A stretch of 64,000 bases of DNA from the NCBI GenBank assembly GCA_963657245.1, contig CAVKLJ010000003.1, forward strand, positions 65,219-129,218, given 5' to 3'. Shown one piece after another: positions 4,805 to 60,418 of the stretch (its first letter is position 1; each line of letters starts with the position of its first letter). This stretch comes from Lachnospiraceae bacterium (GTDB lineage: Bacteria; Bacillota_I; Bacilli_A; RFN20; CAG-826). The notes beneath the pieces are model-generated. The model was given only the letters and a program-made list of their open reading frames with translations. It was not told the DNA's origin and ran no database searches. The position numbers and the translations under genes were made by a program.

Positions 4805-4901
4805 CATCTTATGTCCAGTTACACTTGTTTCTTATGTCCTACTTATGTCATCATGCGGACATAAGATGAAAAAACATCGATAATTACTAATGTTTATCTT
4901 A
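4805..4901. repeat. 97-bp module, copy A of two, containing CTTATGTC words; lies upstream of the PIN-like gene and downstream of the AlbA_2 gene
   Basis: Near-identical to 6368..6465: a 63-nt perfect block, then a 1-nt indel plus 1 mismatch, then a 26-nt perfect block. CTTATGTC occurs at 4808, 4831 and 4842, with inverted GACATAAG at 4858. Confidence 0.9.
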
Positions 4902-4927
4902 ATCGCTTTAAGCTATAAACATCAAAT

Positions 4928-6316
4928 CTATTTCTTTGTGATGTATTTTTGATTCTTTGAATGTTTCTTTGCTGTTGTTAGCAACAATCCTGAATCAAGC
5001 AAGGGTTTTAAGACTCTCTTTGAAAAGTTGCTAGTGCTCGAATAGCCGATATAATTTTGGATTTCTTCTCTGCTTCTTGCGACCCCATCGCAAAAACTTA
5101 AAATCTTTGTATCGTAGTTATCAACGGTTTTTAGAACCGCTTCTTCGGTATTCAGCAAATCGTAGAGAGTTATCATGAAAAAATCTGAAGTATTGTACAA
5201 AGTAGGCTCTTTGGCGTTTAAGTTCTCATAAATGTTATATATCTTTCTCATTCCACTGCCACTTTTTTCCATCAAACCTATGACACTAAAACAATTGCAT
5301 ATTACCTTGTTTCTTCTAACGGACGGAATAGAATCAAATTTATATTCATCTGGTTCCTTGTCTAGAAGCCAAGAGCCAGGAGAGCGAATTTCTAACCTGT
5401 CTTTATAAATATCGACATCTATTTGAGTTCCATATATCGAATAATCTCTATGAGCCAAAGCATTAACGACGCTTTCTCTTAAAGCTTTTTCTGGATATGA
5501 ATATGTATCTAATCTCGATCCATCATCCATCTTGATAAAACCGCTACGAGAATTACGTTTTATAAAGGCCATTATGTTCTCGAAAACTTCGCCTAAGCAT
5601 CCTTTAAATTCTTTCTTATCGATTGCTTCATCAACCCCACGGTTAAATCCGTTCCACAATCTGCAAACAGCCAAAGTATCATCTGAATTGTAATTATCAG
5701 CAAACATCCCTAAGCCTTCTGTAATTCTTCCGTCCTGGCTTATTATTTCCTCATTTATCAACATTTTGATAGATGGTTCTTGATTGTCTATACGATACAT
5801 GCGTGCTAGTTTGTTAAATGAAATAAAGTTCTTCTTTTCGTATTGCTCGTTTAAAATTTGGCCATCTATGCCGTATTTTCTCTTGCTCATTTTTAAAATT
5901 TGATTAATACTTGCCGGCAACGTGGCTCCGTTTTCTCTTATGTATACTTTCTCGTTAAAATCCCCGGCTTTATAAATGACCATTTCATTCAAATAATCAA
6001 CAAAAACGGATAATACATTATTGCCATTGTGGCATTTGATTAGGTCAAACTTGACAGTAACGTGTGGAAAAATATATCTATTTATAGTTAACAAGATTAG
6101 ATTCTTTGTTTGGTCGATTTCTTTGTTGTTTAAGCCTTTGGCATACCCATCATTTGTAACGCCAACAAGCAAATATCCACCTGACGTATTTGCAAACCCG
6201 ACAATTGTTTTTGCCCATCTTTCTATTTTTTCTTTATCATCATCCAATGCTAGTTTGAATTCATAATTTTGGTTCTCTAAATCATCTGCCGGAATTAGTT
6301 CACTTATTTTTTCCAT
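4928..6316 (-). CDS. AlbA_2 (Schlafen-like) plus HATPase_c_4 putative DNA-binding ATPase/transcriptional regulator, paralog 1 of 3
   Basis: 462 aa. N-terminal motifs are ENQNYEFK and GFANTSGGYLLVGV. The central motif is ESVVNALAHRDYSIYGTQIDVDIYKDRLEIRSPG. The C-terminal part is wHTH-like. Paralogous to 23878..25329 and 27357..28799. Confidence 0.75.
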   Translation of the reverse strand: MEKISELIPADDLENQNYEFKLALDDDKEKIERWAKTIVGFANTSGGYLLVGVTNDGYAKGLNNKEIDQTKNLILLTINRYIFPHVTVKFDLIKCHNGNNVLSVFVDYLNEMVIYKAGDFNEKVYIRENGATLPASINQILKMSKRKYGIDGQILNEQYEKKNFISFNKLARMYRIDNQEPSIKMLINEEIISQDGRITEGLGMFADNYNSDDTLAVCRLWNGFNRGVDEAIDKKEFKGCLGEVFENIMAFIKRNSRSGFIKMDDGSRLDTYSYPEKALRESVVNALAHRDYSIYGTQIDVDIYKDRLEIRSPGSWLLDKEPDEYKFDSIPSVRRNKVICNCFSVIGLMEKSGSGMRKIYNIYENLNAKEPTLYNTSDFFMITLYDLLNTEEAVLKTVDNYDTKILSFCDGVARSREEIQNYIGYSSTSNFSKRVLKPLLDSGLLLTTAKKHSKNQKYITKK

Positions 6317-6367
6317 ATATTTTTCCTTCCTCTATGTTATTCTACTTACTTAATTTCAAAACATCAA

Positions 6368-6465
6368 CATCTTATGTCCAGTTACACTTGTTTCTTATGT
6401 CCTACTTATGTCATCATGCGGACATAAGATAAAGAAAACATCGATAATTACTAATGTTTATCTTA
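6368..6465. repeat. 98-bp module, copy B, immediately upstream of AlbA_2 paralog 1
   Basis: See 4805..4901. CTTATGTC occurs at 6371, 6394, 6405 and 6462, with inverted GACATAAG at 6421. CTTATGTC-atcatgcg-GACATAAG forms an 8-bp inverted repeat. Confidence 0.9.
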
Positions 6466-6588
6466 TGTCATCTTGTTAAAACACGTTAATCACACATGGT
6501 GAACAATGGGCACTCTCTTATAATCGCAAACAATGAAAATGACTATCTATTTCTTTTTTTGGAGACAAACGTTTAAAATATCTTAACG

Positions 6589-7218
6589 ATGAAAGATGTT
6601 GCTAAAAACGTTTCACATAATTTATCAACTCTAAGAAAAGCTAGAGGTCTAACACAAGGACAATTAGCAGAAAAGTTTTCTTATTCAGATAAATCGATCT
6701 CTAAATGGGAAACTGGCGATGGTTTGCCAGATATAAGCGTTTTAGCTGAATTGGCAGAATTTTATGGTGTCACATTAGATTATCTAATTAGTGAGCAAAC
6801 CGATGAAACATTGAAAAAAGACGGTAAAAATGACCCAAAAATCATAAAGAGAAACAAAATAATCGTCGTTGCTTTAGGCGTTGTCTTTATCTGGACTATT
6901 GCCGCGGTAATATTTGCCGCACTTATGCTAGCAAACATTCAATCTTGGAATCCTTGGCTAATCTTCCTTTGGGCAATACCTGCTTCATTCTTGGTTTTAA
7001 CGTATTTTGCCAAAAAATGGAATCGGAGATTTGATCTTCTAATTCACGTTCTTTGTTTCTTCTGGAGCACGGCCTTAGCAAGTTATATAGAACTTGGAAT
7101 GGATACAAATATTGGTTGGGGGCTATGGTTTATCTGGTTAACTCCAATACCTGCGACAATTGGTGCAATCTTCCTATATAGATACATTGCAGGAAAAGAC
7201 GATACGATTTTCTTCTAA
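6589..7218 (+). CDS. Membrane-anchored XRE-family HTH regulator
   Basis: The N-terminus LRKARGLTQGQLAEKFSYSDKSISKWETG...LAEFYGVTLDYLI matches HTH_3. It is followed by about four hydrophobic helices. Confidence 0.75.
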   Translation: MKDVAKNVSHNLSTLRKARGLTQGQLAEKFSYSDKSISKWETGDGLPDISVLAELAEFYGVTLDYLISEQTDETLKKDGKNDPKIIKRNKIIVVALGVVFIWTIAAVIFAALMLANIQSWNPWLIFLWAIPASFLVLTYFAKKWNRRFDLLIHVLCFFWSTALASYIELGMDTNIGWGLWFIWLTPIPATIGAIFLYRYIAGKDDTIFF

Positions 7219-7233
7219 TCATCTTTTATAAGC

Positions 7234-7265
7234 CGCTTTCCTTGTAAGAAAGCGTTTATTTTTTT
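7234..7265 (+). terminator. Rho-independent terminator
   Basis: CGCTTTC-cttgtaa-GAAAGCG stem followed by TTTATTTTTTT. Confidence 0.7.
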
Positions 7266-7297
7266 ACAATATCAAATAGTCAAAAGGAAGAAGATTT

Positions 7298-7972
7298 ATG
7301 GATGAAATTCGCGTTATAAAAGTAAAGCAAAGTGTATTTGCAAACAATAATTCCCGTGCTGAGGAAGTCAAAAAGAAACTCAAGGAAAAGAACGTCTATC
7401 TTGTTAACCTTATGTCCTCGCCAGGATCAGGAAAGACAACGTTCCTTGTTAATTTAATCAATCGTTTGAAGAATGATTTACGTATTGGTGTTATCGAAGC
7501 GGATATGGATGCCGTGGTCGATGCAGAGACAATCTCAAAAAACACTGGAGTTAAATCAATCCAAATTCACACCTCTGGCGAATGCCATCTTGATGCAAAA
7601 ATGGTTGATGATGCCCTCACTGGCTTTGGAATTGAAGATTTAGACTTAGTTTTCCTTGAGAATATCGGAAATCTTGTTTGCCCAGCCGAATTTAACACTG
7701 GAGCCACATCTTCTTTTGAACTCTTATCTATCCCCGAAGGAGATGACAAACCTCTTAAATACCCATTGATGTTCACGGTCGCAGATGTCGTCATCTTCAC
7801 AAAGCTTGATGCAATATCAGTATTTGATTTTGACATTCAAAAAGCCGAAGAACATATCCTAAAACTCAACCCAAATTCCAAATTCTTCCCTGTTTCTGCT
7901 AAAACTGGCGAAGGTATGGATAAGATTGCTGAATATCTTTTAAAGCAAGTCAAAGAGTACCAAGCTAAATAA
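7298..7972 (+). CDS. hypB: Nickel-incorporation GTPase HypB
   Basis: 224 aa. P-loop SSPGSGKTTF, the ENIGNLVCPAEF motif and TKLD are all characteristic of HypB/UreG-type G3E GTPases. Confidence 0.85.
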   Translation: MDEIRVIKVKQSVFANNNSRAEEVKKKLKEKNVYLVNLMSSPGSGKTTFLVNLINRLKNDLRIGVIEADMDAVVDAETISKNTGVKSIQIHTSGECHLDAKMVDDALTGFGIEDLDLVFLENIGNLVCPAEFNTGATSSFELLSIPEGDDKPLKYPLMFTVADVVIFTKLDAISVFDFDIQKAEEHILKLNPNSKFFPVSAKTGEGMDKIAEYLLKQVKEYQAK

Positions 7973-7973
7973 T

Positions 7974-8318
7974 ATGCACGAAATGAGTTATGTTTTGATG
8001 AGCATTGAGGAGCTCAATAACGTCATCAAAGAAAACAACGTCAAAGAGCTTATATCGGTAACCTTAGATATCGGAGAGTCTTCTGGCGTTGAAGAAAGCT
8101 ATTTCCGAGTTTGCTGGGATGCGGCAATAAAAGACACACCTTTAAAAAATACGAGGCTCAAAGTAAACATGTTGCCTTCCGAAGGAAGATGTTTATCTTG
8201 TGGAACAATCTTTAATCTCAAAGATAATAATTACACTTGCCCTAGTTGCAAGAGCAACAATGCGTATACGCCAATAAATGGTAAAGACATCGAAATAGTC
8301 GAAATAGAAGCGATATAA
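7974..8318 (+). CDS. hypA: Nickel metallochaperone HypA
   Basis: 114 aa. It has the MHEMS N-terminus and two CxxC pairs (CLSCG and CPSC), and starts 1 nt after the hypB stop. Confidence 0.8.
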   Translation: MHEMSYVLMSIEELNNVIKENNVKELISVTLDIGESSGVEESYFRVCWDAAIKDTPLKNTRLKVNMLPSEGRCLSCGTIFNLKDNNYTCPSCKSNNAYTPINGKDIEIVEIEAI

Positions 8319-8477
8319 AAGCCTTAAACCCATCAAACCTCAAGTCTAATCTTCATATTTTCGTTCTAAGTTTGATTTAACATAAATGAAATCGATTATT
8401 TAAAAACGAATGTCTTATCAATTATTTGGTTATTTTGCTCCAGTAACTTGCCTATAATTACAGTTAGTGGAGCAAAT

Positions 8478-9076
8478 ATGATAAGTACAACAAAAATATT
8501 GTTAGAAAAATACAACGCATTTGGCGATCCATTTAAACAAATAAAAAGGTTGGTTTCAAATGGCGAACTAACACCAATCATTAAAGGCCTATATGAAACA
8601 AATCGTAATGTTGATGGATATCTTTTGGCTGGAGCAATTATGGCCCATCATACCTATCGTTCGACTTTGCTCTATCCTATTACGGCTTAATCCCCTAAAG
8701 AGTTTATACATACACGTCCGCTACATGTTTAAAAAGAAAGTCTAAAGAATATATAACCAAATTCGGTAACTTTACATACCAAGACATTCCTTCTTCTGCA
8801 TTTTCATTGGGGGTTAAAATCAAAGAAGAAGACGGGTACACATATCTCATCGCAACACCAGAAAAGGCTTTATGTGACAAGTTATATTCGCTTAAGCCTG
8901 TTTCTAATCAACAAGAGCTAAAAACATTGTTGTTTGATGATTTGAGAATAGACGAAATTGAATTTAACAAATTAAATATCGAAGATATACGCATTTTAAC
9001 TGAGACTTATGGCTCAAAAAACATATCTCTTTTATACAAAATCATGAGGAAAAATCGAAAACAAAATTTGAAATAG
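8478..9076 (+). pseudogene. Decayed type IV TA antitoxin AbiEi-family gene
   Basis: Track ORFs 8448..8690 and 8807..9076 are the two halves of one AbiEi-like protein (...GELTPIIKGLYETN..., ...GVKIKEEDGYTYLIATPEKALCDKLY). A +1 shift near 8640 restores GPSYLSFDFALSYYGLIP. An in-frame TAA then sits where family members have Glu (IP*RVYTYTS). Confidence 0.7.
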
Positions 9077-9243
9077 ATGCAAATCCGCCACCATATGCGA
9101 CATTCGATTCTAAATACAGCTTAACCCCTACGCCATACGCATGCAGCTTATATGATATAAATTATTTTTGCCGAAAAAATAGCCTTGGTCTTATACCGTA
9201 ATTTGAAAGCAAGACTAAAACAATCGAAGTTTATAAACGATAA

Positions 9244-23623: not shown

Positions 23624-23675
23624 ACTTCTAGATCCTAGAAGTTTTCTAGAAGTGAACTAGAAGTTTTCTAGAAGT
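23624..23675. repeat. Word module 1: inverted ACTTCTAG followed by 4 x CTAGAAGT at 11-bp period
   Basis: ACTTCTAG is at 23624. CTAGAAGT occurs at 23635, 23646, 23657 and 23668. The module starts 6 nt after the upstream stop codon. Confidence 0.9.
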
Positions 23676-23697: not shown

Positions 23698-23725
23698 AGT
23701 GACATCTTGTCACTTTTTTATTTTT
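23698..23725 (+). terminator. Rho-independent terminator of the Na/Pi gene
   Basis: AGTGACA-tct-TGTCACT stem followed by TTTTTTATTTTT. Confidence 0.75.
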
Positions 23726-23734
23726 CTTTATAAT
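23707..23734 (+). promoter_or_regulatory. Putative promoter of AlbA_2 paralog 2 (TTGTCA-N16-TATAAT)
   Basis: -35 at 23707..23712 and -10 at 23729..23734. The promoter lies between the two CTAGAAGT modules. Confidence 0.5.
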
Positions 23735-23769
23735 TTCAGTTTTATTTCGATATTTACTTAATTTCATCA

Positions 23770-23821
23770 ACTTCTAGATCAGAGAAGTTTTCTAGAAGTA
23801 GTCTAGAAGTTTTCTAGAAGT
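23770..23821. repeat. Word module 2, homologous to 23624..23675
   Basis: ACTTCTAG is at 23770 and a degenerate AGAGAAGT at 23781. CTAGAAGT occurs at 23792, 23803 and 23814. It has the same 11-bp phasing and sits 146 bp from module 1. Confidence 0.9.
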
Positions 23822-23877
23822 TGAACTTGATTTTTCAACTTTTAAATCTAAAATATAGAATGAAACGAGGTGAGAAT

Positions 23878-27290: not shown

Positions 27291-27330
27291 TTTGAACTAC
27301 TTCAAAGGTTGTTTGAAGTGCGTTTGAAGT
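27291..27330. repeat. TTTGAAGT-type words upstream of AlbA_2 paralog 3
   Basis: TTTGAACT is at 27291 and inverted ACTTCAAA at 27299. TTTGAAGT occurs at 27312 and 27323 (11 bp apart). The RBS AGGAGGA is at 27343. Confidence 0.8.
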
Positions 27331-28799: not shown

Positions 28800-28930
28800 T
28801 GGTTTTAAATTTCTAGATTTGTATAAATCGAACTCGATCCATCTATCAGCATTTATCAGAACTACATAAATGATAATGGGTGTTTTTGCTATAAGTTTAT
28901 TCTTAGTTTATTGCATTTAATAGTGTTTTT

Positions 28931-28981
28931 TGTCGATTATAGTCGACAGAAATGTATTGTTTTTGTAGAATATAGTCGACA
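28931..28981. repeat. TATAGTCGACA x2 (33 bp apart) plus TGTCGA-N6-TCGACA palindrome upstream of the DUF4143 ATPase gene
   Basis: The 11-mer occurs at 28938..28948 and 28971..28981. The second copy abuts the RBS AAAGGAGAA. Confidence 0.8.
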
Positions 28982-28993
28982 AAGGAGAAAACC

Positions 28994-30253
28994 ATGGACC
29001 ACGAAATTCTCAAGCAAATTATCTTTGAACAACATGAAGTTATTAAAAAAGCTCAGATAGTAACTAGAGATTACACTTTCGATAAAAACGCTAACTACGT
29101 TTTGATAGGTCTTAGGCGCTCAGGAAAATCAACGCTCCTATATAAACGTGTTAAAGATCTCATCGAAGAAGGTGTTGATTGGGAACAAATAATTTACATA
29201 AACTTTGACGATGAGCGTTTGCTTGGCTTTCAAGCAAATGATTTCGAGGACATATTATTGACTGCCGAAGAAATAACAAACGATAAGCATTATTTCTATT
29301 TTGACGAGATTCAAAATATCGATGGTTGGGAAAAATTTGCCATAAGAATGGCTAATGCCATGGAAAAAGTCGATATAACAGGAAGCAATGCGAAAATGCT
29401 TTCAAGGGAAGTCTCGGCAAAATTAGGCGGACGTTATCTTACGAAGATAATCCATTCCTATTCCTTCAGAGAATTTCTCCGTGCAAAATCAATAGACGAA
29501 AGCTCTTCGTATTCCCTTTCTGAACGCGCAACAGTAACAAACGCTCTCCAAGAATTCTACAAGTTTGGTGGATTTCCAGAATCAATCAATTCCATGGATA
29601 AGCGCGAATACGTTTCAAGCATATACGAAAAGATTCTTCTTGGTGATATCATCACTCGCAACTCCATCCGTGGAGAGAACGGCATGAGAATCCTGATAAA
29701 GAAAATATCCACCACCGTCTCACAAGATGTCTCATATACAAATCTTTATAATGCTTTGAAAACGATTGGTTTTTCTCTTTCAAAAGACACGATCATTGAT
29801 TATTGCTCATATGCCACTAAAAGTTTCCTCTTATTTGCTTTGAAAAACTATTATGCTTCCTTTGTTGATAAGGAAAGCAATTCGAAATATTACTTTTCGG
29901 ACAATGGTATTTTGAATCTCTTTTTGGCTAAAGATGACACCTCTCTTTTCGAGAATTTAGTCGCAATAGCCTTAAATCAAAAATACCAAGAAAAACTTTA
30001 TTATTTGAAAAGCAGCAAAACTAAGATAGACATTGATTTTTTTGTTGATGTGGAAAACATCGCAATTCAAACTTGCTATTCCATGGAGAGTCCTACAACT
30101 TTCGAAAGAGAAGTTGGACAACTTAAAAAACTCGACGAAACAGATCCTGGAAAATATAAACTCATCATCGTGACTATGAACGAAACCAAGACAATCCCTT
30201 TAGAAAATAACGAAATCAGAGTGGTCAAATTGCAGGATTTCCTTCTTTCGTAA
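28994..30253 (+). CDS. AAA_14 ATPase with C-terminal DUF4143 (PD-(D/E)xK-like) domain
   Basis: 419 aa. Walker A is GLRRSGKST and Walker B is FYFDEIQ. The size and layout are typical of the widespread 'ATP-binding protein/DUF4143' family. Confidence 0.7.
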   Translation: MDHEILKQIIFEQHEVIKKAQIVTRDYTFDKNANYVLIGLRRSGKSTLLYKRVKDLIEEGVDWEQIIYINFDDERLLGFQANDFEDILLTAEEITNDKHYFYFDEIQNIDGWEKFAIRMANAMEKVDITGSNAKMLSREVSAKLGGRYLTKIIHSYSFREFLRAKSIDESSSYSLSERATVTNALQEFYKFGGFPESINSMDKREYVSSIYEKILLGDIITRNSIRGENGMRILIKKISTTVSQDVSYTNLYNALKTIGFSLSKDTIIDYCSYATKSFLLFALKNYYASFVDKESNSKYYFSDNGILNLFLAKDDTSLFENLVAIALNQKYQEKLYYLKSSKTKIDIDFFVDVENIAIQTCYSMESPTTFEREVGQLKKLDETDPGKYKLIIVTMNETKTIPLENNEIRVVKLQDFLLS

Positions 30254-44520: not shown

Positions 44521-44670
44521 AATTATTTCCCATGGTGGAGGCTCGGGCCTCCTTGACGCCAACGGATTAAAGAACTAAACTAAGTATGCAATTGATGAGT
44601 TCCAGCAAGAGCGCGAGAAGTGGCGACCACTTCAAGAGCCACGCTAGAACTCTTTTTATTTGCATTTTCG

Positions 44671-44736
44671 CTAAGGTGGTTTTCCCACAAAATCCATTTG
44701 CGTCTCAGAAACCCTTGCCCCCATTGGTGCGATCAT
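44671..44736 (-). CDS. Candidate 21-codon leader sORF (MIAPMGARVSETQMDFVGKPP*)
   Basis: AAAGGAGGG lies 11 nt upstream of the ATG. Length and 13/21 residues are conserved with copy 2, and 4 of the identical residues use different codons. It ends KPP-stop. Confidence 0.5.
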   Translation of the reverse strand: MIAPMGARVSETQMDFVGKPP

Positions 44737-44790
44737 TTGGGTATTGCCCTCCTTTTCGCATCAGCAGCAAGGTTCTCTTGCCACATACAT

Positions 44791-44819
44791 ATTATAAACC
44801 ATACTAGTATTAGTATCAA
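44791..44819 (-). promoter_or_regulatory. Consensus sigma-70 promoter of module 1
   Basis: On the minus strand: TTGATA (44819..44814), N17, TATAAT (44796..44791). Confidence 0.7.
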
Positions 44820-45062
44820 TATCTATTTGATTAAATTTAATTCACCACTAATTTTCTAATCATTTAAAACAATGAGTTGCCCAAACCACGTTAAAGTAAT
44901 CCAAATTTTTAGATTTTAACCATGGTGGAGGCTCGGGCCTCCTTGACACAAACAGGTTAATTAACTAGAATATAAATGCTTTTATGAGTTCTAGCAGTAG
45001 CGCGAGAAGTGGCGACCACTTCAAGAGCCACGCTAGAATCTTTTTTAATCGCATGGCATCAG

Positions 45063-45128
45063 TTATGGCGGTTTAAACCAAAAACCTGTTGTTGTCTCAG
45101 AAGCCTTCGCCCCCATTTTTGCGATCAT
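45063..45128 (-). CDS. Candidate 21-codon leader sORF (MIAKMGAKASETTTGFWFKPP*)
   Basis: Same SD and spacing as the copy 1 sORF. Confidence 0.5.
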   Translation of the reverse strand: MIAKMGAKASETTTGFWFKPP

Positions 45129-45181
45129 TTGGGTATTGCCCTCCTTTTCGCATCAATGGCAGGGTTATTTGCCATGTTTCA

Positions 45182-45210
45182 ATTATAAACCGTACTAGTA
45201 TTAGTATCAA
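45182..45210 (-). promoter_or_regulatory. Consensus sigma-70 promoter of module 2
   Basis: On the minus strand: TTGATA (45210..45205), N17, TATAAT (45187..45182). Confidence 0.7.
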
Positions 45211-45267
45211 GGCTTATTTATGATTTTTTTGCTTAACAACACTGCTATTCAATCAGCTGATTCGACG

Positions 45268-45398
45268 TTAGTTAATTAAAGAACTAAACTAATCATGCGC
45301 CTTATGAGTTCTAGAAGTAACACAAGAGCTGATGACCACTTAAAAATATTGCTAGAACTTTTTATTACGATGCACTTATTGCACAACCTCATTATACA
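45268..45398 (-). repeat. Degenerate third copy; only the central hairpin region is retained
   Basis: 45268..45365 aligns to 44565..44660 of copy 1 (aaagaactaaactaa...gagttc.ag...gctagaact.tttttatt). It lacks the sORF and the terminal hairpin. A TGTATAAT extended -10 lies on the minus strand at 45398..45391. Confidence 0.6.
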
Positions 45399-45426: not shown

Positions 45427-48400
45427 TTAGAATAATGATAATTGTTCCATTTCATCGATATTTTTATATCCTTCAATTAGCTTTTTCAAAAACTCATAAT
45501 CTTTTGAATAGGAGTTAGGCAAACGAATCAATTGCAGACCTTTTGATTGGCATATTTCCATCTTCTTTTTATCTGATTTTATTCTTTTTGCGTCGGAAAA
45601 GTGTTCTCCACCATCGAATTCGAATGCGTACTTAGCCTTGAAAGCCCCTAACGCTCCACGTTCATATATCACTGAATCAAATTCTTGCAAAGAATTAGCG
45701 TATTCCTCACCGAATACATCTTTTAGAGGAACGTTTCTAACAACCTTTAGTTTTCTTTTTGTAGAGACTATCTGTTTTATGGTTTCGTAAAATTCATCTT
45801 CACTAAGAGAGCCATTGGATTTGCCAATTGCTAGATTTGAATAATTTGGTGGAACGACTTCGCAAGATCCGTTGCTATCACAATAACTTACTAGTTCATT
45901 CCAAACATCATCACCCGTGTCTATTTTCTTTAAGGCTTCTTTGTCAGAAAACACCACTAATTTCTTTTTTGCTCTCGAAACTGCAACATTGGCAATCTCA
46001 CCATGGTTATGAAGCCAACTTAATGCGCCCTTAGAGGAATACTTAGAGATTCCCGTCGATACGATTATCGTTTCTTTTTCATCCCCTTGAACACTATGTA
46101 TTGTTGAAGCCTTTACCCCCGTTACCCCGCTTCTTTCTAGCAATGAGTTAATTAAGTTTGCTTGATTGATAAAGGGTGTGATTATCGCACAATTATCTAA
46201 ATTAGCCTTCTTACAATACTCCACTACATTTGCTGCTTCTTGATAGTTTTGATTCCTTAAAGGAGTCTTCACGTAATTTATTGTCTTATAACACTCAACA
46301 TCACCTGATATTAAGTCTTTTTGCAAACGTAGCTTATTCTGATAGAAATATTTGTTGCTGAAATTAATGATCTTTTTACCACAACGATAATGATCTCTAA
46401 GTAAAACTCTATTACTTACTTTATCCGCTTCTTTCATCGTGGAAAGAATTGAATTTGTAAGGTAGTCATATCCATCTGAAATTTCAAATTTCTCCTTTAA
46501 ATCCTCATTCGTTTTATCATCTATGTTAACAACTGGCGTTAATTGGTCTTCATCTCCAACTAATAACAACGCCTTGCCACGAGATAAAGGCAATAAGGAA
46601 TGAGCAATATCTGCTTGGCCCGCTTCATCCATGATAATTAGATCAAAAAGAAAATCTCCACTGCCTAATCTTGCTGAAGAAATATTAGTCGTAAAAATGA
46701 TTGGAAAAACATTTGTAAGCAGTTCCATGTTTTTATCTTCGCTTATAAACGAATTGAATCTCATTCTTCTTTTTGCTTCATCGGAACAATTAATAATGTC
46801 TAATAGTTCTTCATATCTATGAGTTCTTAATCTCTTAAGCCTATTCAAAGACGAGTAATAAAGATATTTCATCGCATCTTCATCGTTTTTTAGTGAAACA
46901 AAAGAAGAAATTAATTCATCCTCGCTTATGTCTGGTAAGGCGTTTAATTCTTCTTCAAGTTTTTCTCTTTGTCTTTTAACGATGCTTGTTTTTGCGCCAA
47001 AAGAAGAAACCCTATCGAGGAAAGAAAGATTTTCTATCACTGTTTTTCTTCTTTGGAAGTTGGTTAAAGAAAGAACTGCCTCTTTGTTACTTGCAAGAAG
47101 CTTTGTTTTTAGCTTATCAAGCTCAGTATTGGATATAGCATCATCAAGATCGATATCTAACATTTCTTTCATTCTTAAAAGGCTCTCTTGAACCTTTGCG
47201 GAATTCCCTAAACGTAAATATGGGAAATCAATTTTCTTCCCTTGGTATTTGAAATCTATTTTGCTAATTATGCCTTCTAAGGGGCGATTGTTGTTTGTTG
47301 ATACCAAAACGCTTTTATCAGCAAAGTAGGCAGATAAAATCGTATTGAATATCGTTTGAGTTTTCCCTGTTCCTGGTGGACCTTGAACATAGGTTATTTT
47401 GTTCTTCAAAGAGTTATAGATTAATAAAGCTTGATCAGAATTAACTCGATCGTCAAAAAGAACTATTCCAGGTAAAGATCTTCCATTATTTGAAAGGCTA
47501 GAGTTGCCAAAGAACGCTTTAAGAGGAACATTTAGTTCTCCTTTTGCCCACTTATCTTCTATCTTATCAAAAAGAGGATTTAGATTTATCTGAACATCTC
47601 TTTGTAGGCAAAAGAAATCCGGACGGGTATTTATCTTTTCTCGGTAATATAAGTTCTCTCTTATTATCTCCACGGCATTATCAAAATCGGTCTTCAAAAG
47701 GCCTTTGAATTCAATCGCACTTAGTTCAGTATAAGCAGACAAAGAATGTTTTTTACCATCGATAAGAAAGGTTGGATTAACCTTGACTTCACCGATGATT
47801 TTCATTTTTCTATCTTCTGGGGAAAAACAAACCTTTTGATACGCGACAATGTATTTCTTATCTCCATCATCAATAGATAGTCTTGATATCGCCAGTTCAG
47901 ATTGTTTCTTTTCCCATTCCTCTAAATCTAGTTTTACGACCTTTCGAACTAGAGAATGAATTTGTGAATCGGATAAAAGGTATTCACCATTTTCTTTAAG
48001 CGATTCTACATCAATACCTTCAACCATTGAGTAATTAGAGGTAAACGGGTCTGAATCCGCATTCGAGCAGCATTCAAGATAACGAAGAATATTGTTGCTA
48101 AAGTTTTCATACTTGAGCCAACTATATTCTTCAATATTTGAGTTGATCTTTTTGTTCAACTCTTCGTTATATCTGCCAGTTGTAAAATTAATGACTTTTG
48201 CTTCTTTGATCTTGTTAAATGAAAGATTGCATTCGATAACATCAATTCCCTTAAAATCATTAAAAGCAAGTGCCCTTAAAATTTGTTTCTTTGGATTGAT
48301 ATCTTTGATGAAACACCAAAATGATGTATCTCTTTTTTCTTTAGATGAATCATAGACAACAGAAAGCCATTTGCCTTCTTTTATCGAAAGAGATATTTCT

Positions 48401-48429
48401 TTAGCAATGGTGTTTTGATTCATATCCAA
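45427..48429 (-). CDS. SF1 (Upf1/DNA2-like, AAA_11/AAA_12) helicase with C-terminal DUF559/Vsr-like endonuclease-fold domain
   Basis: 1000 aa. Helicase motifs are GPPGTGKT, IIMDEAGQA, VGDEDQL, TIHSVQGDEKETIIVS and NVAVSRAKKKLVVF. The C-terminus has YAFEFDGGEHF...D..K...C...GLQLIRLP. The N-terminal ~330 aa is unassigned (possibly WYL/SH3-like at residues 10-60, weak). Confidence 0.75.
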   Translation of the reverse strand: MDMNQNTIAKEISLSIKEGKWLSVVYDSSKEKRDTSFWCFIKDINPKKQILRALAFNDFKGIDVIECNLSFNKIKEAKVINFTTGRYNEELNKKINSNIEEYSWLKYENFSNNILRYLECCSNADSDPFTSNYSMVEGIDVESLKENGEYLLSDSQIHSLVRKVVKLDLEEWEKKQSELAISRLSIDDGDKKYIVAYQKVCFSPEDRKMKIIGEVKVNPTFLIDGKKHSLSAYTELSAIEFKGLLKTDFDNAVEIIRENLYYREKINTRPDFFCLQRDVQINLNPLFDKIEDKWAKGELNVPLKAFFGNSSLSNNGRSLPGIVLFDDRVNSDQALLIYNSLKNKITYVQGPPGTGKTQTIFNTILSAYFADKSVLVSTNNNRPLEGIISKIDFKYQGKKIDFPYLRLGNSAKVQESLLRMKEMLDIDLDDAISNTELDKLKTKLLASNKEAVLSLTNFQRRKTVIENLSFLDRVSSFGAKTSIVKRQREKLEEELNALPDISEDELISSFVSLKNDEDAMKYLYYSSLNRLKRLRTHRYEELLDIINCSDEAKRRMRFNSFISEDKNMELLTNVFPIIFTTNISSARLGSGDFLFDLIIMDEAGQADIAHSLLPLSRGKALLLVGDEDQLTPVVNIDDKTNEDLKEKFEISDGYDYLTNSILSTMKEADKVSNRVLLRDHYRCGKKIINFSNKYFYQNKLRLQKDLISGDVECYKTINYVKTPLRNQNYQEAANVVEYCKKANLDNCAIITPFINQANLINSLLERSGVTGVKASTIHSVQGDEKETIIVSTGISKYSSKGALSWLHNHGEIANVAVSRAKKKLVVFSDKEALKKIDTGDDVWNELVSYCDSNGSCEVVPPNYSNLAIGKSNGSLSEDEFYETIKQIVSTKRKLKVVRNVPLKDVFGEEYANSLQEFDSVIYERGALGAFKAKYAFEFDGGEHFSDAKRIKSDKKKMEICQSKGLQLIRLPNSYSKDYEFLKKLIEGYKNIDEMEQLSLF

Positions 48430-48451
48430 GAACTATTTTAGGATATTTCTA

Positions 48452-50496: not shown

Positions 50497-50499
50497 AGA

Positions 50500-52062: not shown

Positions 52063-52130
52063 ACTAAGTTATTTAAACACGGATAGACTTTTTAAGCATT
52101 CTTTTCTTTTATGAAACCAGTTACTTTGTC

Positions 52131-52172
52131 TAAAAAAGAAAAGAGCCAGTAAGTTACTTTCTTATTGGCTCT
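52131..52172 (-). terminator. Terminator of the ABC operon
   Basis: AGAGCCA-N17-TGGCTCT followed by TTTCTTTTTT on the minus strand. Confidence 0.6.
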
Positions 52173-52182
52173 TAACGTTTTA

Positions 52183-54654: not shown

Positions 54655-54655
54655 C

Positions 54656-56505: not shown

Positions 56506-56632
56506 ATTTAGTCTCCTTAGAAGTTATTGCACTATAGTCCAATATCTTCCGTGCAGTATATTATTACTACTCTATTCCATTTACAATACTTTTGTGATAA
56601 TATTTTTTGCGTTCGAGGTTAAATGAACAAAA

Positions 56633-57229
56633 ATGGAAGAAAATGAACAATTAACAATTAAAGAAGACGCGCGCATTGTGCGTACGAAAAGAGATTTAGC
56701 AAACGCTTTAGAAGAACTCTTAAAAGAAAAAAGCATTGATGATATATCTATAAAGGATATAACAGACCGTGCGCTTATATCGAAAAACACTTTCTATAAC
56801 AATTTTAACGACAAGAACGAATTGCTTGTTTTCCTTTTTGAAAGATATGAAGCAGCTCTTCTTAAAGAAATAAAACCAATCTTAGATAAAGCCTTCTATG
56901 CGACAAGGATCTTTTCTTTCAAAAAAGCCGTTGAGACAATTGTTCATTTCTTCTATACGACAAGTCTTCCAATCAAAGAAATCGTCAAACACGATTCATC
57001 GAAAGTTCTTTTCTATACCTTAGACGTATTCATCCAAGACGTATTCAAAAGATTAGAAAAAAATTATGAGAAATTCCTCACGAAAAAAGTGAATAGCAAG
57101 ATAACCGCACCATTCTATGCTGGTGCTTTTGCTAGCACGATATATTTTGCCTATGTAAACGATTTTGAAATGGATGAAAAAGAAATATCTCGTGATCTAG
57201 TTAGATTGTCCTTGCCTATCGTTGAATAG
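56633..57229 (+). CDS. TetR/AcrR-family transcriptional regulator
   Basis: 198 aa. The N-terminal HTH is RTKRDLANALEELLKEKSIDDISIKDITDRALISKNTFYNNF. It is divergent from the ABC operon. Confidence 0.8.
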   Translation: MEENEQLTIKEDARIVRTKRDLANALEELLKEKSIDDISIKDITDRALISKNTFYNNFNDKNELLVFLFERYEAALLKEIKPILDKAFYATRIFSFKKAVETIVHFFYTTSLPIKEIVKHDSSKVLFYTLDVFIQDVFKRLEKNYEKFLTKKVNSKITAPFYAGAFASTIYFAYVNDFEMDEKEISRDLVRLSLPIVE

Positions 57230-57230
57230 T

Positions 57231-58568
57231 TTAGTCTTTCATTTCTTCTGGATGATGCAATAAATGAACATCCAAGAAGGTTGATAAAAGAAGGCCAAAG
57301 AAAGCCAATAAAGACATAATAAAGAAGGCTATATATAACGTATCGTTTAAATAAGGATAGCTTAGTTGCAAAACAGAGTTAACAAGTTGGAAAACTAACG
57401 GAGCAATAAAGACCGCTTTTCGACGTAACTTAGGTCCTAAGATGTGGTTCAGGATCATTAGGTTACTAGTCACATATAGACCACTAGCCATACCCTTTAA
57501 TGAATGTATGAAAATAATACCTATAGCTAAAGATAATGTCGCATGTTCTTCTCCAACAAAATTATAGGAGAAAATGCCTAGTAACATTGTTTCAACAAAC
57601 AAGAGTATCAAGGCTAGGCTTAAAGAAAAACGTATCTTTTTTCCGATGCCAAAATGAGTGTTGATAAAGATGATTGCAAACTCAAATAAAGATGAGATAC
57701 CTAAATAAAGACCCCAGGTAAAAGAGTTAAAGGAATTCATTACTTGGATATTTTCGTATGAAGACCATAAGGAAGAAGATAATGAATCGCTAGCCCATAT
57801 AAGAGGGATCCATAAAGAAGCTAGGAACAAATAAAACACATAAGTCTTATTCTTGAAAAGCAGTTTTGTCGGCACGTGCTCATCAGAATCTGAATGATAT
57901 AACGATGAAGGAAATGGTTTAAACATATAAGTAAGACCAAATAACAACAACGTTAAAGGCGAGGCGACTAAGAATAAAAACAAATAACCTTTATATCCAG
58001 TAAAGAAACACTCGGCAATATAACCAGCCAAAGGAGAAGCAAGGGCAGGAAGCAAACTACCATATAAAACTATATGACCGTAACGGCTCTTCTCAGCAAA
58101 GTTAATATCTGCCGAACAAGACGCGTGATAAGAAAGAAAAGCCCAATATAAGCCCATCAAAACTGATGGAAAAATTAAGAAAATCAAAAATAACGCGTAA
58201 AACTGGCCTGAATTTGTTATTTGGCCGTTAGAATCCAAACCATTTGGCAAGAATATGCCTAGTAACGACATCAAAACAATCACAAAAAAGGAAATTAACA
58301 ATAGAATCCTCATTATTTTTAGATTTTGTTTTTGATGGGATACAAAGAAGGAACAAATGAATATACCTATCGCCGCGCCAAATGGTGGCATGAATAAACT
58401 AAATGAGGACATCAAAGACGACCATCCCAATTGGTTCCTACATTCATTCAAGAAAATGGTTAAGAAGGAGATCGTCATACCTTCAAACAAACAAATACAG
58501 GCGTAGAATATCTGAGCCTTTGCTGTTTCTGGTTTCTCATTTCTATCTAAGAAGAATGTTGCGCGCAT
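57231..58568 (-). CDS. 12-TM MFS-like transporter
   Basis: 445 aa and uniformly hydrophobic. No sharp signature recognised. Confidence 0.5.
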   Translation of the reverse strand: MRATFFLDRNEKPETAKAQIFYACICLFEGMTISFLTIFLNECRNQLGWSSLMSSFSLFMPPFGAAIGIFICSFFVSHQKQNLKIMRILLLISFFVIVLMSLLGIFLPNGLDSNGQITNSGQFYALFLIFLIFPSVLMGLYWAFLSYHASCSADINFAEKSRYGHIVLYGSLLPALASPLAGYIAECFFTGYKGYLFLFLVASPLTLLLFGLTYMFKPFPSSLYHSDSDEHVPTKLLFKNKTYVFYLFLASLWIPLIWASDSLSSSLWSSYENIQVMNSFNSFTWGLYLGISSLFEFAIIFINTHFGIGKKIRFSLSLALILLFVETMLLGIFSYNFVGEEHATLSLAIGIIFIHSLKGMASGLYVTSNLMILNHILGPKLRRKAVFIAPLVFQLVNSVLQLSYPYLNDTLYIAFFIMSLLAFFGLLLSTFLDVHLLHHPEEMKD

Positions 58569-58571
58569 ACA

Positions 58572-59252
58572 TTATAAATATAAAGAAATATCCGCTAGGT
58601 CGTTAAGCACAAAATCCACTTTAACGTTTGTAAGTTCTACTTTCTTTTTATTGTATAAACAAGTCTTGATGCCAGCGTTCTTCCCACCAGCCATATCAGA
58701 CGTTAAAGAATCGCCAATAATTAACATTTCTTCTCTTGAAATATCTTCTTTGATTTCATTAATTGCCTTATCAAAGAATCCCTTAGCCGGTTTAGCAAAT
58801 CCAAGCTTTTCGGAGATAAAGAAATAAGAAAAATAGTCTTTCAATTTTCCTATCTCCAAACGATTTAATTGTTGCTTATATGGGCCATTACTCGCAACAG
58901 CAAGAATGTATCCCTTCTTTTTTAGATACTCTAACATTTCATATGAATGAGAAATGGGGATTGCGCTGCTAAAGAGTTCTTCACGATAATACGCTTCAAA
59001 TACTTCGCCATCAAAAGATATATTCAAGGCGGCAAAAACCTTGTTGAAACGTATTTTTTGTAATTCTTCAAATGTCAGATTCCCCTTCTCTATCTCTCTC
59101 CACAGGAGATCATTTTCCTTATGAAAAGTATCAATAACGTGTTGATTAAACTCGCCCAAATCAAAACGTTTAAAACCATCTCTTAATGTTTTTTCAGTAT
59201 ATGCGTCGTAATCAAGTAAGGTGTTGTCTACATCGATAAAAATCAGTTTCAT
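58572..59252 (-). CDS. HAD-IA family hydrolase (YjjG-like nucleotidase/phosphatase)
   Basis: I prefer the start MKLIFIDVDNTLLDY (motif I DxDxT) over the track's GTG at 59288. Motif II is VASNG and motifs III/IV are K...GDSLTSD. Confidence 0.75.
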   Translation of the reverse strand: MKLIFIDVDNTLLDYDAYTEKTLRDGFKRFDLGEFNQHVIDTFHKENDLLWREIEKGNLTFEELQKIRFNKVFAALNISFDGEVFEAYYREELFSSAIPISHSYEMLEYLKKKGYILAVASNGPYKQQLNRLEIGKLKDYFSYFFISEKLGFAKPAKGFFDKAINEIKEDISREEMLIIGDSLTSDMAGGKNAGIKTCLYNKKKVELTNVKVDFVLNDLADISLYL

Positions 59253-59310
59253 ACTCAAAGATTTTATAACATAGCATATTTCTGTCACTAAATATCGATT
59301 CTTTAGTGAA

Positions 59311-59367
59311 GTTCTAAAGAGTTCTAAATATTGAAAAAAGTTCTAAAATGTTCTAAAATGTTCTAAA
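59311..59367. repeat. Array of 5 x GTTCTAAA overlapping the promoter of 59381..60418
   Basis: Exact 8-mers start at 59311, 59321, 59340, 59350 and 59360, giving spacings of 10, 19, 10 and 10. The last copy abuts the RBS AAGGAGGG. Confidence 0.9.
59331..59359 (+). promoter_or_regulatory. Putative promoter of 59381..60418 (TTGAAA-N17-TAAAAT)
   Basis: The -35 lies in the 19-bp gap between words. The -10 is formed by the 3' end of the word at 59350. Confidence 0.5.
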
Positions 59368-59380
59368 AGGAGGGCATCCC

Positions 59381-60418
59381 ATGTCAAACCCATTTTCCAC
59401 CACATTCGGAATTGAACCAATCAATTTAATAAAAAGGACCGAAGAAACCGAAAAAATAATCTCTGATTTTTCAGATGAAAATATTGCAAATTACGTTTAT
59501 ATCATCACAGGATTAAGGGGAAGCGGTAAGACGGTTCTCCTATCAACCATAGCCAATAAGCTAAAAGACGATGATAATTGGGTCGTCGTCGATCCGGGAC
59601 CAAAAGATAATATTTTAGAAAACATTGCTTCGGAGATTTATGAAACGTGTAACCTAAAGAAACTATTTATCAAAGGAGAATTCTCATTTTCCTTTCAAGG
59701 CATAACTTTTTCTTTAAAGGGAAAGGAACCTACTACCACAGTCATGAGTCTTTTAAAGAAAATGATCGGCTACATCAACAAAAAGGGCAAAAGAGTTTTA
59801 ATAACAATTGATGAAGCTGATAACAGTGAACAAATGAAAATATTTATTGAAGCGTATCAAACACTCATCAGACAAGGCTATAAAGTTCTCTTGCTGATGA
59901 CTGGCTTATATGAAAATATTTCAAAACTTCAAGATGATAAATCTTTAACGTTTCTGTATAGGGCTCCAAAAATTGTTCTTGGCCCACTCAACATTTCTTC
60001 GATTTCTTTGGCCTATCAAAAATACTTAGAGGTCGATGAAGAAATTGGCCTAAAACTTGCTAAATTAACCCGTGGATACGCATACGCATATCAGGTTCTC
60101 GGTTATTTAATGTACACATACAAAACAAAAGACATAAACAAAGACATCCTTGGAGAATTCGATCAATATCTTGCTGATTATGTCTACGGCAAATTATTCT
60201 CTAAACTTAGCTCTAAAGAGCAAGACATAATCATCTCAATGCTTGATGACTCTCCGATAAAAAACGAAGCATTAAGAGAAAAGGTTGGCTGTGACATAAA
60301 GACTTTGAGCGTCTATCGGGACAGGCTTATAAAGAAAGGCATTCTTTATTCTCCTAAGTATGCATATTTGGATTATGCTTTGCCAAGATTCCGTTATTTC
60401 TTGCTAACTAAGATATAA
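59381..60418 (+). CDS. AAA/ORC-like ATPase with C-terminal wHTH, paralog 2 of 2
   Basis: 345 aa and colinear with 9244..10293. Shared blocks are NPFS..FG, GLRGSGKT, EFSFSFQG.TFS.KG, DD.SLTFLYRAPKI and LTRGYAYAYQ. Confidence 0.7.
   Translation: MSNPFSTTFGIEPINLIKRTEETEKIISDFSDENIANYVYIITGLRGSGKTVLLSTIANKLKDDDNWVVVDPGPKDNILENIASEIYETCNLKKLFIKGEFSFSFQGITFSLKGKEPTTTVMSLLKKMIGYINKKGKRVLITIDEADNSEQMKIFIEAYQTLIRQGYKVLLLMTGLYENISKLQDDKSLTFLYRAPKIVLGPLNISSISLAYQKYLEVDEEIGLKLAKLTRGYAYAYQVLGYLMYTYKTKDINKDILGEFDQYLADYVYGKLFSKLSSKEQDIIISMLDDSPIKNEALREKVGCDIKTLSVYRDRLIKKGILYSPKYAYLDYALPRFRYFLLTKI

Follow-up and report, generated by a model that had tools for sequence, protein, structure and literature searches.

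In a 64,000-nt stretch of a Lachnospiraceae bacterium genome (assembly GCA_963657245.1, contig CAVKLJ010000003.1, positions 65,219 to 129,218; hereafter the window), several genes are preceded by repeated copies of a short word, and the locus raises the question of what these words are for and what reads them. The genes are three AlbA_2 paralogs (Schlafen-type nuclease domain, GHKL-like domain, and winged helix), two AAA-HTH paralogs (ATPase_2 and winged helix), an AAA_14/DUF4143 gene, and a Fic gene (Table 1). A preliminary description of this DNA took the words for operators read by the product of the adjoining gene. The explanation that we prefer, at a probability of about 0.7, is that they are cooperative auto-operator arrays carried by portable candidate single-gene defence cassettes, the encoded protein repressing its own gene.

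Repeated words in the window

The window was scanned blind, on either strand, for any 7-mer present in at least four copies per 120 nt. Eight regions were returned (4808-4865, 6370-6469, 10318-10394, 10558-10623, 10722-10842, 23624-23675, 23769-23822, and 59311-59367), against a mean of 0.31 and a maximum of three clusters in 100 second-order Markov shuffles. All of them adjoin the genes named above, bar one orphan array, and every word cluster listed in the preliminary description was indeed present at its place. The remaining genes of the window never have more than three upstream copies, and those are irregularly spaced, which bears out the earlier remark that the housekeeping genes have nothing comparable.

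Pfam assigned SLFN_AlbA_2 with HATPase_c_4 to three of the genes, ATPase_2 to two, AAA_14 with DUF4143 to one, and Fic to one. The words of the AAA-HTH arrays are spaced 10/19/10/10(/19) bp, those of AlbA_2 paralog 2 have a period of 11 bp, and those of AlbA_2 paralog 1 lie 11, 16, 23, and 41 bp apart. The words of the DUF4143 gene, one of six genes credited earlier with three to seven copies phased at 10-12 bp, are 33 bp apart. Neither this gene nor the Fic gene (spacings of 22 and 30 bp) belongs with the phased arrays, where both had been placed: the former has only two copies and a half-site and the latter three copies. These are ordinary two- to three-site operator-like elements, not arrays.

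Arrays as a trait of protein families

Homologs were sampled from two families, and the loci are numbered with the prefix L. There were 471 homologs of AlbA_2 paralog 1 (E <= 1e-10), with 80 loci from the genomes of 80 species (Lachnospiraceae, Treponema, Erysipelotrichaceae, Bacilli metagenome-assembled genomes, and others); the ATPase_2-winged-helix family, which has thousands of members in varied genomic contexts, gave more than 5,000 matches, and 80 metagenome loci were taken. Under a strict criterion, which asked for a 7-mer repeated exactly at least four times within 220 nt upstream, 44 of 75 AlbA_2 homologs scored, compared with 14 of 308 neighbouring open reading frames (ORFs) at the same loci; for ATPase_2 the counts were 55 of 77 and 7 of 191. 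The control positives together amount to 21/499, and 12 of the 21 merely adjoin the array of a family gene. When start codons were corrected by hidden Markov model and at least six copies of an 8-mer with one mismatch were demanded, arrays were found at 49/77 AlbA_2 genes versus 17/309 controls and at 48/75 ATPase_2 genes versus 8/187 controls. The array-less AlbA_2 members cluster in the most distant subgroup. Sorting the AlbA_2 homologs by their alignment to the C-terminal winged helix of the profile was also tried, and did not cleanly separate array-bearing from array-less members.

A census of 1.23 Mb, comprising the window and 175 loci with 174 family ORFs, found 128 phased arrays. Ninety-four lie upstream of family ORFs, five lie just downstream of one, and five fall inside mis-called 5' ends, with none inside any other ORF; the remaining 24 are mostly family-related too. 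At least three independent arrays precede AAA_14/DUF4143 genes (L004, L061, and L089, with periods of 22-23 bp or 11/21 bp); those at L004 (2193-2275) and L089 (4324-4410) are four direct repeats with a 22-23-bp period, from which the two-site layout of the DUF4143 gene of the window differs. Overall, the enrichment is confined to three protein families in more than 150 genomes of several phyla. Because of this enrichment relative to controls, and because of the census, it can be said that such arrays are not common upstream of arbitrary genes, an outcome that the preliminary description had named as telling against its own proposal.

Geometry of the arrays

Adjacent AlbA_2 words are 11 bp apart in 71 cases, 10 bp in 41, and 12 bp in 20, with multiples at 21-22 bp, and adjacent ATPase_2 words are 10 bp (104 cases), 19 bp (61), or 29 bp (16) apart. 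The median distance from the last word to the start codon is 25 nt in both families. Word orientation relative to the gene is conserved, the ATPase_2 words reading AGT(T/A)NTA(A/T)A in the direction of the gene, and many AlbA_2 arrays open with a dyad (TTGAAGTtACTTCAA or ACTTCTAGatcCTAGAAGT) that is followed by direct copies. The best sigma-70-like promoter, as predicted from the consensus, lies inside the array span at 34 of 38 AlbA_2 and 31 of 42 ATPase_2 loci; in ATPase_2 arrays the -35 element sits in the 19-bp gap, and the -10 element is a word plus one base. In the window, the predicted promoters of both AAA-HTH paralogs and of the DUF4143 gene are likewise embedded in the array or operator (Table 1). 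The first TATAGTCGACA copy of the DUF4143 gene supplies the -35 element and the second lies at about +1, and the last GTTCTAAA word abuts the Shine-Dalgarno sequence of AAA-HTH paralog 2.

Differences between close relatives were seen in two groups of loci. Upstream of the gene at position 3001 in L120, L125, L126, L127, and L130, nucleotide identity is 88-97% and the AAAGTTATATA words differ in number and spacing; judging from this group, arrays appear to expand and contract quickly. In L098, L104, L105, and L113, otherwise 95% identical, a MITE-like (miniature inverted-repeat transposable element) insertion of ~220 bp lies ~220 bp upstream of the gene at position 2995 and parts the GTTATAAA array from the -10 region; it has terminal inverted repeats and is flanked by a target duplication of 9 bp (ATATATTTG).

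Words vary with the proteins

Words are common to the members of a subfamily across genomes, and subfamilies differ. Relatives of AlbA_2 paralogs 2 and 3 use TTGAAGT, GTGAAGT, GCGAAGT, or CTAGAAGT, relatives of paralog 1 use GACATAAG, TGAACATGAT, or GGGCTCATGATG, and a large AlbA_2 clade at 40% identity uses (GC/TA/GA/GT)AATGT(T). The words of the ATPase_2 family are GTTATAAA, GTTATATA, GTTATAAC, GTTCTAAA, GTAATAAA, GTATAAA, GTACAA, CTAACAA, and ATGACAA, and their classes follow both the clades and the residues that precede a conserved SVYRDRL helix. It is the N-terminal end of the predicted recognition helix that carries the variable residues. Within the xAATGT clade, sequences with an Arg in SRS[R]FL go with GGC-AATGT in 6 of 8 cases, compared with 0 of 21 sequences without it, and those with the Arg occupy at least three separated positions in a tree of the N-terminal domain. 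At equal N-terminal identity, pairs with different words have a C-terminal identity that is 7-9 points lower. Words are 88% identical and spacers 74% identical between related loci, a difference that is only suggestive because aligners favour matching repeats.

The word GACATAAG is retained in L174, where the protein is 72% identical and the surroundings are unrelated, and GTTCTAAA in a syntenic 85% ortholog (L173). Co-resident paralogs in one genome always differ in word (the window, L057, and L085). Together with the covariation, this fits operators that may have co-diversified with their proteins and become mutually insulated. Of the earlier proposal of operators diversifying together with their paralogs, two parts are upheld by the comparative evidence, namely promoter-linked arrays throughout the families and words that track clade and recognition helix. 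The notion that each word is private to one gene has to be given up, as subfamily members in other genomes share words and two arrays of the window stand away from their cognate gene.

A portable unit

None of the flanking genes in the window recurs in the flanks of the 160 loci compared. In many cross-genome pairs a nucleotide identity of 80-90% extends solely from the array start to the stop codon, and the homology of the DUF4143 gene to L163 and L164 covers exactly 28927-30253, that is, operator plus ORF. Synteny around AAA-HTH paralog 2 is conserved in L173. Another relative, L162 (GCA_963611905.1), is syntenic with positions 19541-39959 of the window at 74-81% identity and has no AlbA_2 paralog 2; at 4439-4592, a CTAGAAGT-type array comes directly after the stop codon of the Na/Pi transporter and is followed by a run of 10 N, presumably an assembly break within the repeat. 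The slot of paralog 3 is occupied there by a 1064-amino acid (aa) LRR_5 protein (6447-9932), and the slots of paralogs 2 and 3 are thus variable between related genomes. Recombination between the two arrays of paralog 2 was considered as a cause of its presence or absence and was rejected, as both arrays are upstream of the gene.

AlbA_2 paralog 1 is bracketed by two copies of a ~98-bp array segment that are identical at 96 of 98 positions. The same array-ORF-array structure was found at 8 of 72 AlbA_2 loci (1/284 controls) and 5 of 70 ATPase_2 loci (2/169 controls). The duplicated segment is 40-200 bp long, with 80-98% identity between its copies; 14-51 nt separate the end of the upstream copy from the start codon, and the downstream copy begins -3 to +27 nt from the stop codon. 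In L005 and L063 the arrays bracket two or three genes. The genes past the second copy are unrelated (mraZ-mraW, merR with Fe-ADH, an integrase/HAD gene, and a DUF4143 gene). Between L051 and L056, homology takes in precisely the two arrays and what they enclose, and the flanks differ, the arrays being 96-97% and the ORF 75% identical. The structure fits a second operator that serves looping or insulation or controls the following gene; it also fits cassettes bounded by direct repeats that are lost or re-inserted by recombination between arrays, leaving solo arrays.

Orphan arrays of family-type words (GTTCTAAA and AATGACAAA types), which count among the 24 remaining arrays of the census, were noticed at L091 (2931-2996), L092 (2418-2473), L093 (1984-2038), and L159 (4328-4384). 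Each is found past a family gene with another word, on the strand opposite to it, and no ORF follows.

The encoded proteins

The preliminary description had credited all of these families with an NTPase joined to a DNA-binding or nuclease domain, which needs amending for AlbA_2: this is a Schlafen-type nuclease domain, not an NTPase, and the ATPase-like part is the GHKL-like HATPase_c_4. PF04326 (Schlafen/AlbA_2) was matched in all three paralogs at E values of 4e-13 to 5e-19, PF13749 (HATPase_c_4) is present in all three, and PF21247 was found in close homologs. The family profile matches structures of SLFN5/11/12/13/14 and Cash. In the AlphaFold2 (AF2) model of paralog 1 (predicted local distance difference test, pLDDT, 85), residues 402-460 form a helix-helix-helix-wing (helices 402-408, 416-423, and 428-441, then a two-strand wing), i.e., a helix-turn-helix (HTH). 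Foldseek returned 3lmm, Schlafen N-domains, and the SAMD9 DNA-binding domain for this model, and GHKL kinases, PDK/BCK kinases, and catalytic cores of histidine kinases for its middle domain. Residues E14, E19, and K21 of the Schlafen domain are invariant in 17 sequences; their spacing resembles that of E15/D20, the residues mutated in RorSlfn5 (PMC13056530), to which they may correspond.

The model of an ATPase_2 paralog (pLDDT 86, predicted template modelling score 0.80) comprises an AAA+ module, a lid, and a C-terminal winged helix. Its top Foldseek matches are archaeal Orc1/Cdc6 structures, 2qby_A (E 5.7e-12), 1fnn, 1w5t, and 2v1u, of which 2qby and 2v1u are DNA-bound forms, and PABY2304; Apaf-1/CED-4/NLR, MalT, and DnaA come after these. 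By sequence, the ATPase_2 paralogs have weak, sub-threshold matches to nSTAND5, NB-ARC, and KAP, and searches of PDB sequences with the ATPase_2 family and the DUF4143 protein gave no match. The DUF4143 fold is of the PD-(D/E)xK type (PMC3424549).

Interpretation and alternatives

In the explanation that we prefer, a cassette would be a promoter in or abutting a word array, followed by one ORF whose product ends in a winged helix. With a period of 10-11 bp, the winged helices of neighbouring protomers could each dock onto the next word along the same side of the DNA, and their N-terminal NTPase or GHKL modules would make contacts between protomers that render binding cooperative. The bound oligomer would then cover the promoter spacer, the -10 element, and +1, repressing its own gene and holding the protein at a low set-point wherever the cassette lands. 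Schlafen-type RNase-GHKL-HTH, Orc1/Cdc6-like ATPase-winged helix-turn-helix (wHTH), and AAA_14-PD-(D/E)xK proteins are candidate, potentially toxic single-gene immune effectors that would benefit from tight dosage control and context independence. As word and recognition helix change together, paralogs in one genome would not be expected to cross-regulate. The arrays themselves, their tie to the families, their geometry relative to predicted promoters, the covariation of word and helix, and the portability of the unit are observed; from them we infer binding by the cognate protein, its cooperativity, repression rather than activation, and the immune role.

Several observations weigh against this explanation. 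About one-third of the family genes have no array under the strict criterion. The arrays of AlbA_2 paralogs 1 and 2 do not cover the best predicted promoter but precede it or lie on both sides of it, and therefore activation or looping may be at work instead; many ATPase_2 words are downstream of the predicted transcription start, which also fits a roadblock or an RNA-level site. The word class GTTATAAA occurs with several different helix sequences, and all of the covariation evidence is confounded to some degree by shared ancestry. Furthermore, pure autoregulation does not explain the duplication of the array after the stop codon in ~10% of loci, nor the orphan arrays.

These last structures are the basis of a different reading, raised as an alternative in the preliminary description, in which the arrays are the ends or landing pads of mobile cassettes: recombination between two array copies, possibly paired by the encoded protein, would loop out or insert a circle of ORF plus array and leave solo arrays behind, and autoregulation would be secondary. 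This reading is compatible with auto-operators. We consider it unlikely as the main role of the arrays. It draws on the discrete non-syntenic unit and the array-ORF-array loci, with unrelated housekeeping genes following the second array and homology between L051 and L056 spanning exactly the two arrays and the ORF despite differing flanks, on the orphan arrays in the window (10558-10621), L091-L093, and L159, and on L162, where a CTAGAAGT-type array is present without paralog 2 and an LRR gene replaces paralog 3. However, ~85-90% of loci have an upstream array only, the position and orientation of the array are fixed relative to promoter and start codon, as for an operator and not the end of an element, and these genes are not accompanied by a recombinase or transposase. 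The two upstream arrays of paralog 2 could neither insert nor delete the gene by recombining, the array of L162 abuts the 10 N and is uncertain in structure, and a second operator selected for looping or insulation gives the same structures. Similarly low odds attach to a bolder version in which an array-templated wHTH-NTPase filament might pair both ends of the gene, yielding self-mobilising cassettes that need no recombinase, excise to leave solo arrays, and re-enter with such arrays as landing pads, and/or might hold a resting immune effector that is released on infection.

The position of the array of AlbA_2 paralog 1, which stops exactly at the -35 element as is typical of an activator, would suit arrays that are assembly platforms, on which DNA-templated oligomerisation activates transcription or loads or activates the NTPase or nuclease, as with MalT boxes, DnaA boxes, and the origin repeats of Orc1/Cdc6. 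The Orc1/Cdc6-like and STAND-like fold of ATPase_2, with MalT and DnaA among its Foldseek matches, and the second array copies upstream of other genes point the same way. Words cover the spacer, -10, and +1 in most loci, however, several paralogs occur per chromosome without origin features, contrary to a role in replication, and the AlbA_2 family has the same arrays without an AAA+ module; we doubt this possibility slightly more than that of mobile cassettes. A good deal less probable is that the repeats act as RNA, either as motifs in the 5' untranslated region (UTR) bound by the protein, Schlafen/AlbA_2 being able to bind RNA, or as alternative hairpins controlling translation. The strongest predicted promoter of AlbA_2 paralog 2 (23707..23734) is upstream of its array A2 and would place A2 in the 5' UTR, the best predicted promoter is upstream of the array at 9/42 ATPase_2 and 3/38 AlbA_2 loci, and inverted copies could pair with direct ones. 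On the other hand, the ATPase_2 family has the same arrays without an RNA-binding domain, the winged helix common to both families binds duplex DNA, and a 10-11-bp period makes sense in duplex DNA but not in RNA; as most arrays contain the promoter, much of the array would be untranscribed, and Rfam gave no match in the window. Finally, the arrays could be chance or low-complexity repeats, or could serve a general host factor that has nothing to do with the adjacent gene. In favour of this are the AT-richness of the sequence and the A-tracts in the ATPase_2 words, whose 10-bp phasing would alone be enough to bend DNA. The reading is effectively refuted by the excess of clusters over shuffled sequence and the restriction of enrichment and census arrays to three families; words that differ between paralogs of the same genome and follow protein clades also speak against it.

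Comparison with known systems

Tandem operator arrays that autoregulate a gene are already known (ParR-parC, omega, MalT boxes, DnaA boxes, and Orc1/Cdc6-ORB, the origin recognition boxes). In ParR-parC of plasmids R1 and pSK41 the repeats are 11-bp tandem direct repeats, and the omega repressor of pSM19035 has arrays of 7-bp heptads; in both cases the repeats span or flank the protein's own promoter, and cooperative, polymer-like binding on one DNA face autoregulates the gene. ParR and omega are small ribbon-helix-helix plasmid adaptors that bind centromeres, the motor being a separate gene. The arrays described here resemble parC in being tandem direct repeats of about one helical turn over the gene's own promoter, and the two five-copy arrays around the promoter of AlbA_2 paralog 2 mirror its 5 + 5 layout. 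Here, however, a winged helix is fused to a large NTPase or nuclease in single chromosomal genes with several paralogs. In place of a small adaptor with a separate motor NTPase gene on a segregating replicon, there are chromosomal housekeeping flanks, and two chromosomal relatives are syntenic. Plasmid iterons (17-22 bp, at an origin, with a rep gene) do not match either, as the period is 10-11 bp, there is no Rep domain, and several arrays occur per chromosome; the 22-23-bp DUF4143 repeats of L004 and L089 are like iterons in length only.

MalT, a large protein that has sensor repeats and a LuxR-type HTH, activates other operons, and its nucleotide-dependent oligomerisation leads to cooperative binding to direct-repeat boxes. 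It shares with the present proteins an NTPase and HTH in one polypeptide and several direct-repeat boxes, which are putative sites here, whereas these are minimal proteins without sensor repeats or a LuxR-type HTH, their arrays are on their own promoter, and the geometry suggests repression. The AAA+, lid, and winged-helix fold of Orc1/Cdc6 is the best structural match of the ATPase_2 paralog, and recognition repeats, here putative, immediately upstream of the gene for the binding protein are a likeness to Orc1/Cdc6 and DnaA alike. By contrast, the present arrays lack origin features and consist of distinct 7-10-bp words at a 10-bp period, not ORB, with several paralogs per chromosome. By sequence the proteins fall outside Orc1/Cdc6, their best Pfam match being ATPase_2 and not Cdc6/ORC, and two paralogs occur within 64 kb in housekeeping surroundings.

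Among defence regulators, WYL proteins of the BrxR/CapW type are separate winged-helix proteins that repress a defence gene until infection via one or two inverted repeats. A winged helix and a site upstream of a defence gene are common to both, binding here being putative; the difference is that in the present genes the candidate effector itself includes the wHTH, and the putative sites are 4-13 phased direct repeats. The domain order of the three AlbA_2 paralogs is identical to that of pSlfn-HisKinase-HTH, the second commonest architecture of prokaryotic Schlafens (pSlfns) at 19.2% of 5,930 (Nat Microbiol 2026, PMC13056530). The pSlfns are proposed to be phage-defence tRNases, and their fused domains were treated as sensors; the HTH-bearing class lies outside the published tests, and upstream repeats or autoregulation are not mentioned (PMC13056530). 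PDC-S01, an ATPase fused to a PD-(D/E)xK nuclease, is reported to be the fourth most common defence candidate in prokaryotes and is unvalidated (PMC12988326). The DUF4143 gene of the window matches it over its full length (model PDLC04787, E 1.5e-87, residues 27-418 of 419), and the Fic gene matches PDC-S04, likewise an unvalidated candidate, in its Fic part (PDLC04836, E 2.4e-93).

The preliminary description knew of no account of this arrangement for these families, and we too met none: in the searchable literature we found no description of upstream repeats for AlbA_2, HATPase_c_4, COG2865, DUF4143, PF01637, DUF234, or 'divergent AAA', nor of cis-elements of PDC-S01 and PDC-S04, absence being of course no proof. 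What is new is the family-wide scale, a reader domain fused to the effector, co-diversifying specificities, and the array-ORF-array and solo-array structures. Few candidate single-gene defence systems are as common as pSlfn-HisKinase-HTH and PDC-S01, and the arrays bear on the role of their HTH domains; a co-evolving cis-signature suggests that the HTH reads the auto-operator, thereby setting the dose of the effector and rendering the gene portable. The pairing of Arg with GGC and of Gln with TA offers a readout of the specificity code, and the families could supply synthetic biology with a large natural library of mutually orthogonal repressor-operator pairs. In annotation, the array signature helps to locate promoters, the true starts of genes, and what remains of lost ones. 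The array-ORF-array and solo-array structures point to a way, so far unstudied, in which genes turn over in defence loci.

Features of the window and neighbouring genes

Table 1. Word arrays, operator-like elements, and associated genes in the window (positions are those of the window).
Feature	Position	Strand	Remarks
515-aa ORF behind R2, otherwise unrelated to AlbA_2 paralog 1	3127..4674	-	
Array segment R2, direct repeat of R1	4805..4901	-	Begins 27 nt past paralog 1 stop codon, upstream of ORF 3127..4674; GACATAAG at 4808, 4831, 4842, 4858
AlbA_2 paralog 1, 462 aa: Schlafen-type nuclease domain, GHKL-like HATPase_c_4, C-terminal winged helix	4928..6316	-	Pfam, AF2, Foldseek
Array segment R1, 5x GACATAAG (one inverted), upstream of AlbA_2 paralog 1	6368..6465	-	GACATAAG at 6371, 6394, 6405, 6421, 6462; ends at -35 of predicted promoter (6367..6339)
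AAA-HTH paralog 1, 349 aa: ATPase_2, C-terminal winged helix	9244..10293	-	
AAGTACAA array, 6 copies, spacing 10/19/10/10/19	10318..10393	-	Predicted promoter TTGAAT-17-TACAAT (10345..10317) inside
Orphan array, 6x (A/G)TTGAAGT at 11-12 bp	10558..10621	-	Between AAA-HTH paralog 1 array and Fic gene
CTTTACTT, 3 copies (two direct, one inverted), operator-like	10784..10843	+	At 10784, 10806, 10836; upstream of HTH-Fic gene
XRE-HTH + Fic gene	10847..11757	+	PADLOC PDC-S04
CTAGAAGT array A1: one inverted and four direct copies, 11-bp period	23624..23675	+	6 nt past Na/Pi transporter stop codon
Terminator-like hairpin (23698-23714) and strongest predicted promoter, TTGTCA-16-TATAAT (23707..23734)	23698..23734	+	Between A1 and A2
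CTAGAAGT array A2: layout of A1, 4 copies and 1 degenerate	23770..23821	+	
AlbA_2 paralog 2, 483 aa	23878..25329	+	Start from called gene; mechanically listed ORF starts 23821
TTTGAAGT array: one inverted and two direct copies, degenerate copy just 5'	27299..27330	+	Copies at 27299, 27312, 27323
AlbA_2 paralog 3, 480 aa	27357..28799	+	
DUF4143 operator-promoter: TGTCGAT half-site and two TATAGTCGACA	28927..28981	+	TATAGTCGACA at 28938, 28971; predicted promoter TCGACA-17-TAGAAT (28943..28971)
AAA_14 + DUF4143 gene, 419 aa	28994..30253	+	PADLOC PDC-S01
GTTCTAAA array, 5 copies, spacing 10/19/10/10	59311..59367	+	Predicted promoter TTGAAA-17-TAAAAT (59331..59359) inside
AAA-HTH paralog 2, 345 aa: ATPase_2, winged helix, Orc1/Cdc6-like fold	59381..60418	+	

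The ORF behind R2 has no significant family match, an N-terminal PIN_4 match being weak and sub-threshold (E 0.004), and its C-terminal half is long and Lys-rich; it may be co-regulated with AlbA_2 paralog 1. Divergent from that paralog is an XRE-type HTH_3 gene of 209 aa (6589..7218, +), and array R1 lies in their common intergenic region. An exact-sequence look-up of the Na/Pi transporter, the gene before A1, returned only the window's own genome.

The orphan array region contains neither an ORF nor a gene remnant by tblastn with all six proteins, and the Rfam and tRNA scans of the window gave no match, leaving the array unexplained by a known RNA; it may be what is left of a lost AlbA_2 cassette, or may give the neighbouring gene a second regulatory input. 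In the HTH-Fic gene, the XRE-HTH part and the Fic part are in different frames, with the break at an A7 run (10868-10874) that could reflect a sequencing error, a pseudogene, or slippage-prone phase variation. Viral contigs were scanned for triplets of TTGAAGT and AGTTATAAA and gave many matches; half of these are inside ORFs and none is near a family gene, and they are thus uninformative on phage decoys. A scan of viral contigs for DUF4143 relatives found none.

Other defence-like or irregular features were noticed nearby. Short ORFs of 80 and 89 aa lie next to each other at 8448-9076, each in its own frame; by eye they resemble one disrupted gene and are possibly pieces of an AbiEi-type antitoxin or regulator. 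A ~390-bp tandem repeat of two to three copies with 67-88% identity (44530-45344) overlaps an 84-aa minus-strand ORF, between a hydrolase-like gene and a 1000-aa helicase. The latter (45427-48429, -), an AAA_11/AAA_12 protein with a C-terminal DUF2726, is a stand-alone, defence-like gene without an upstream array.

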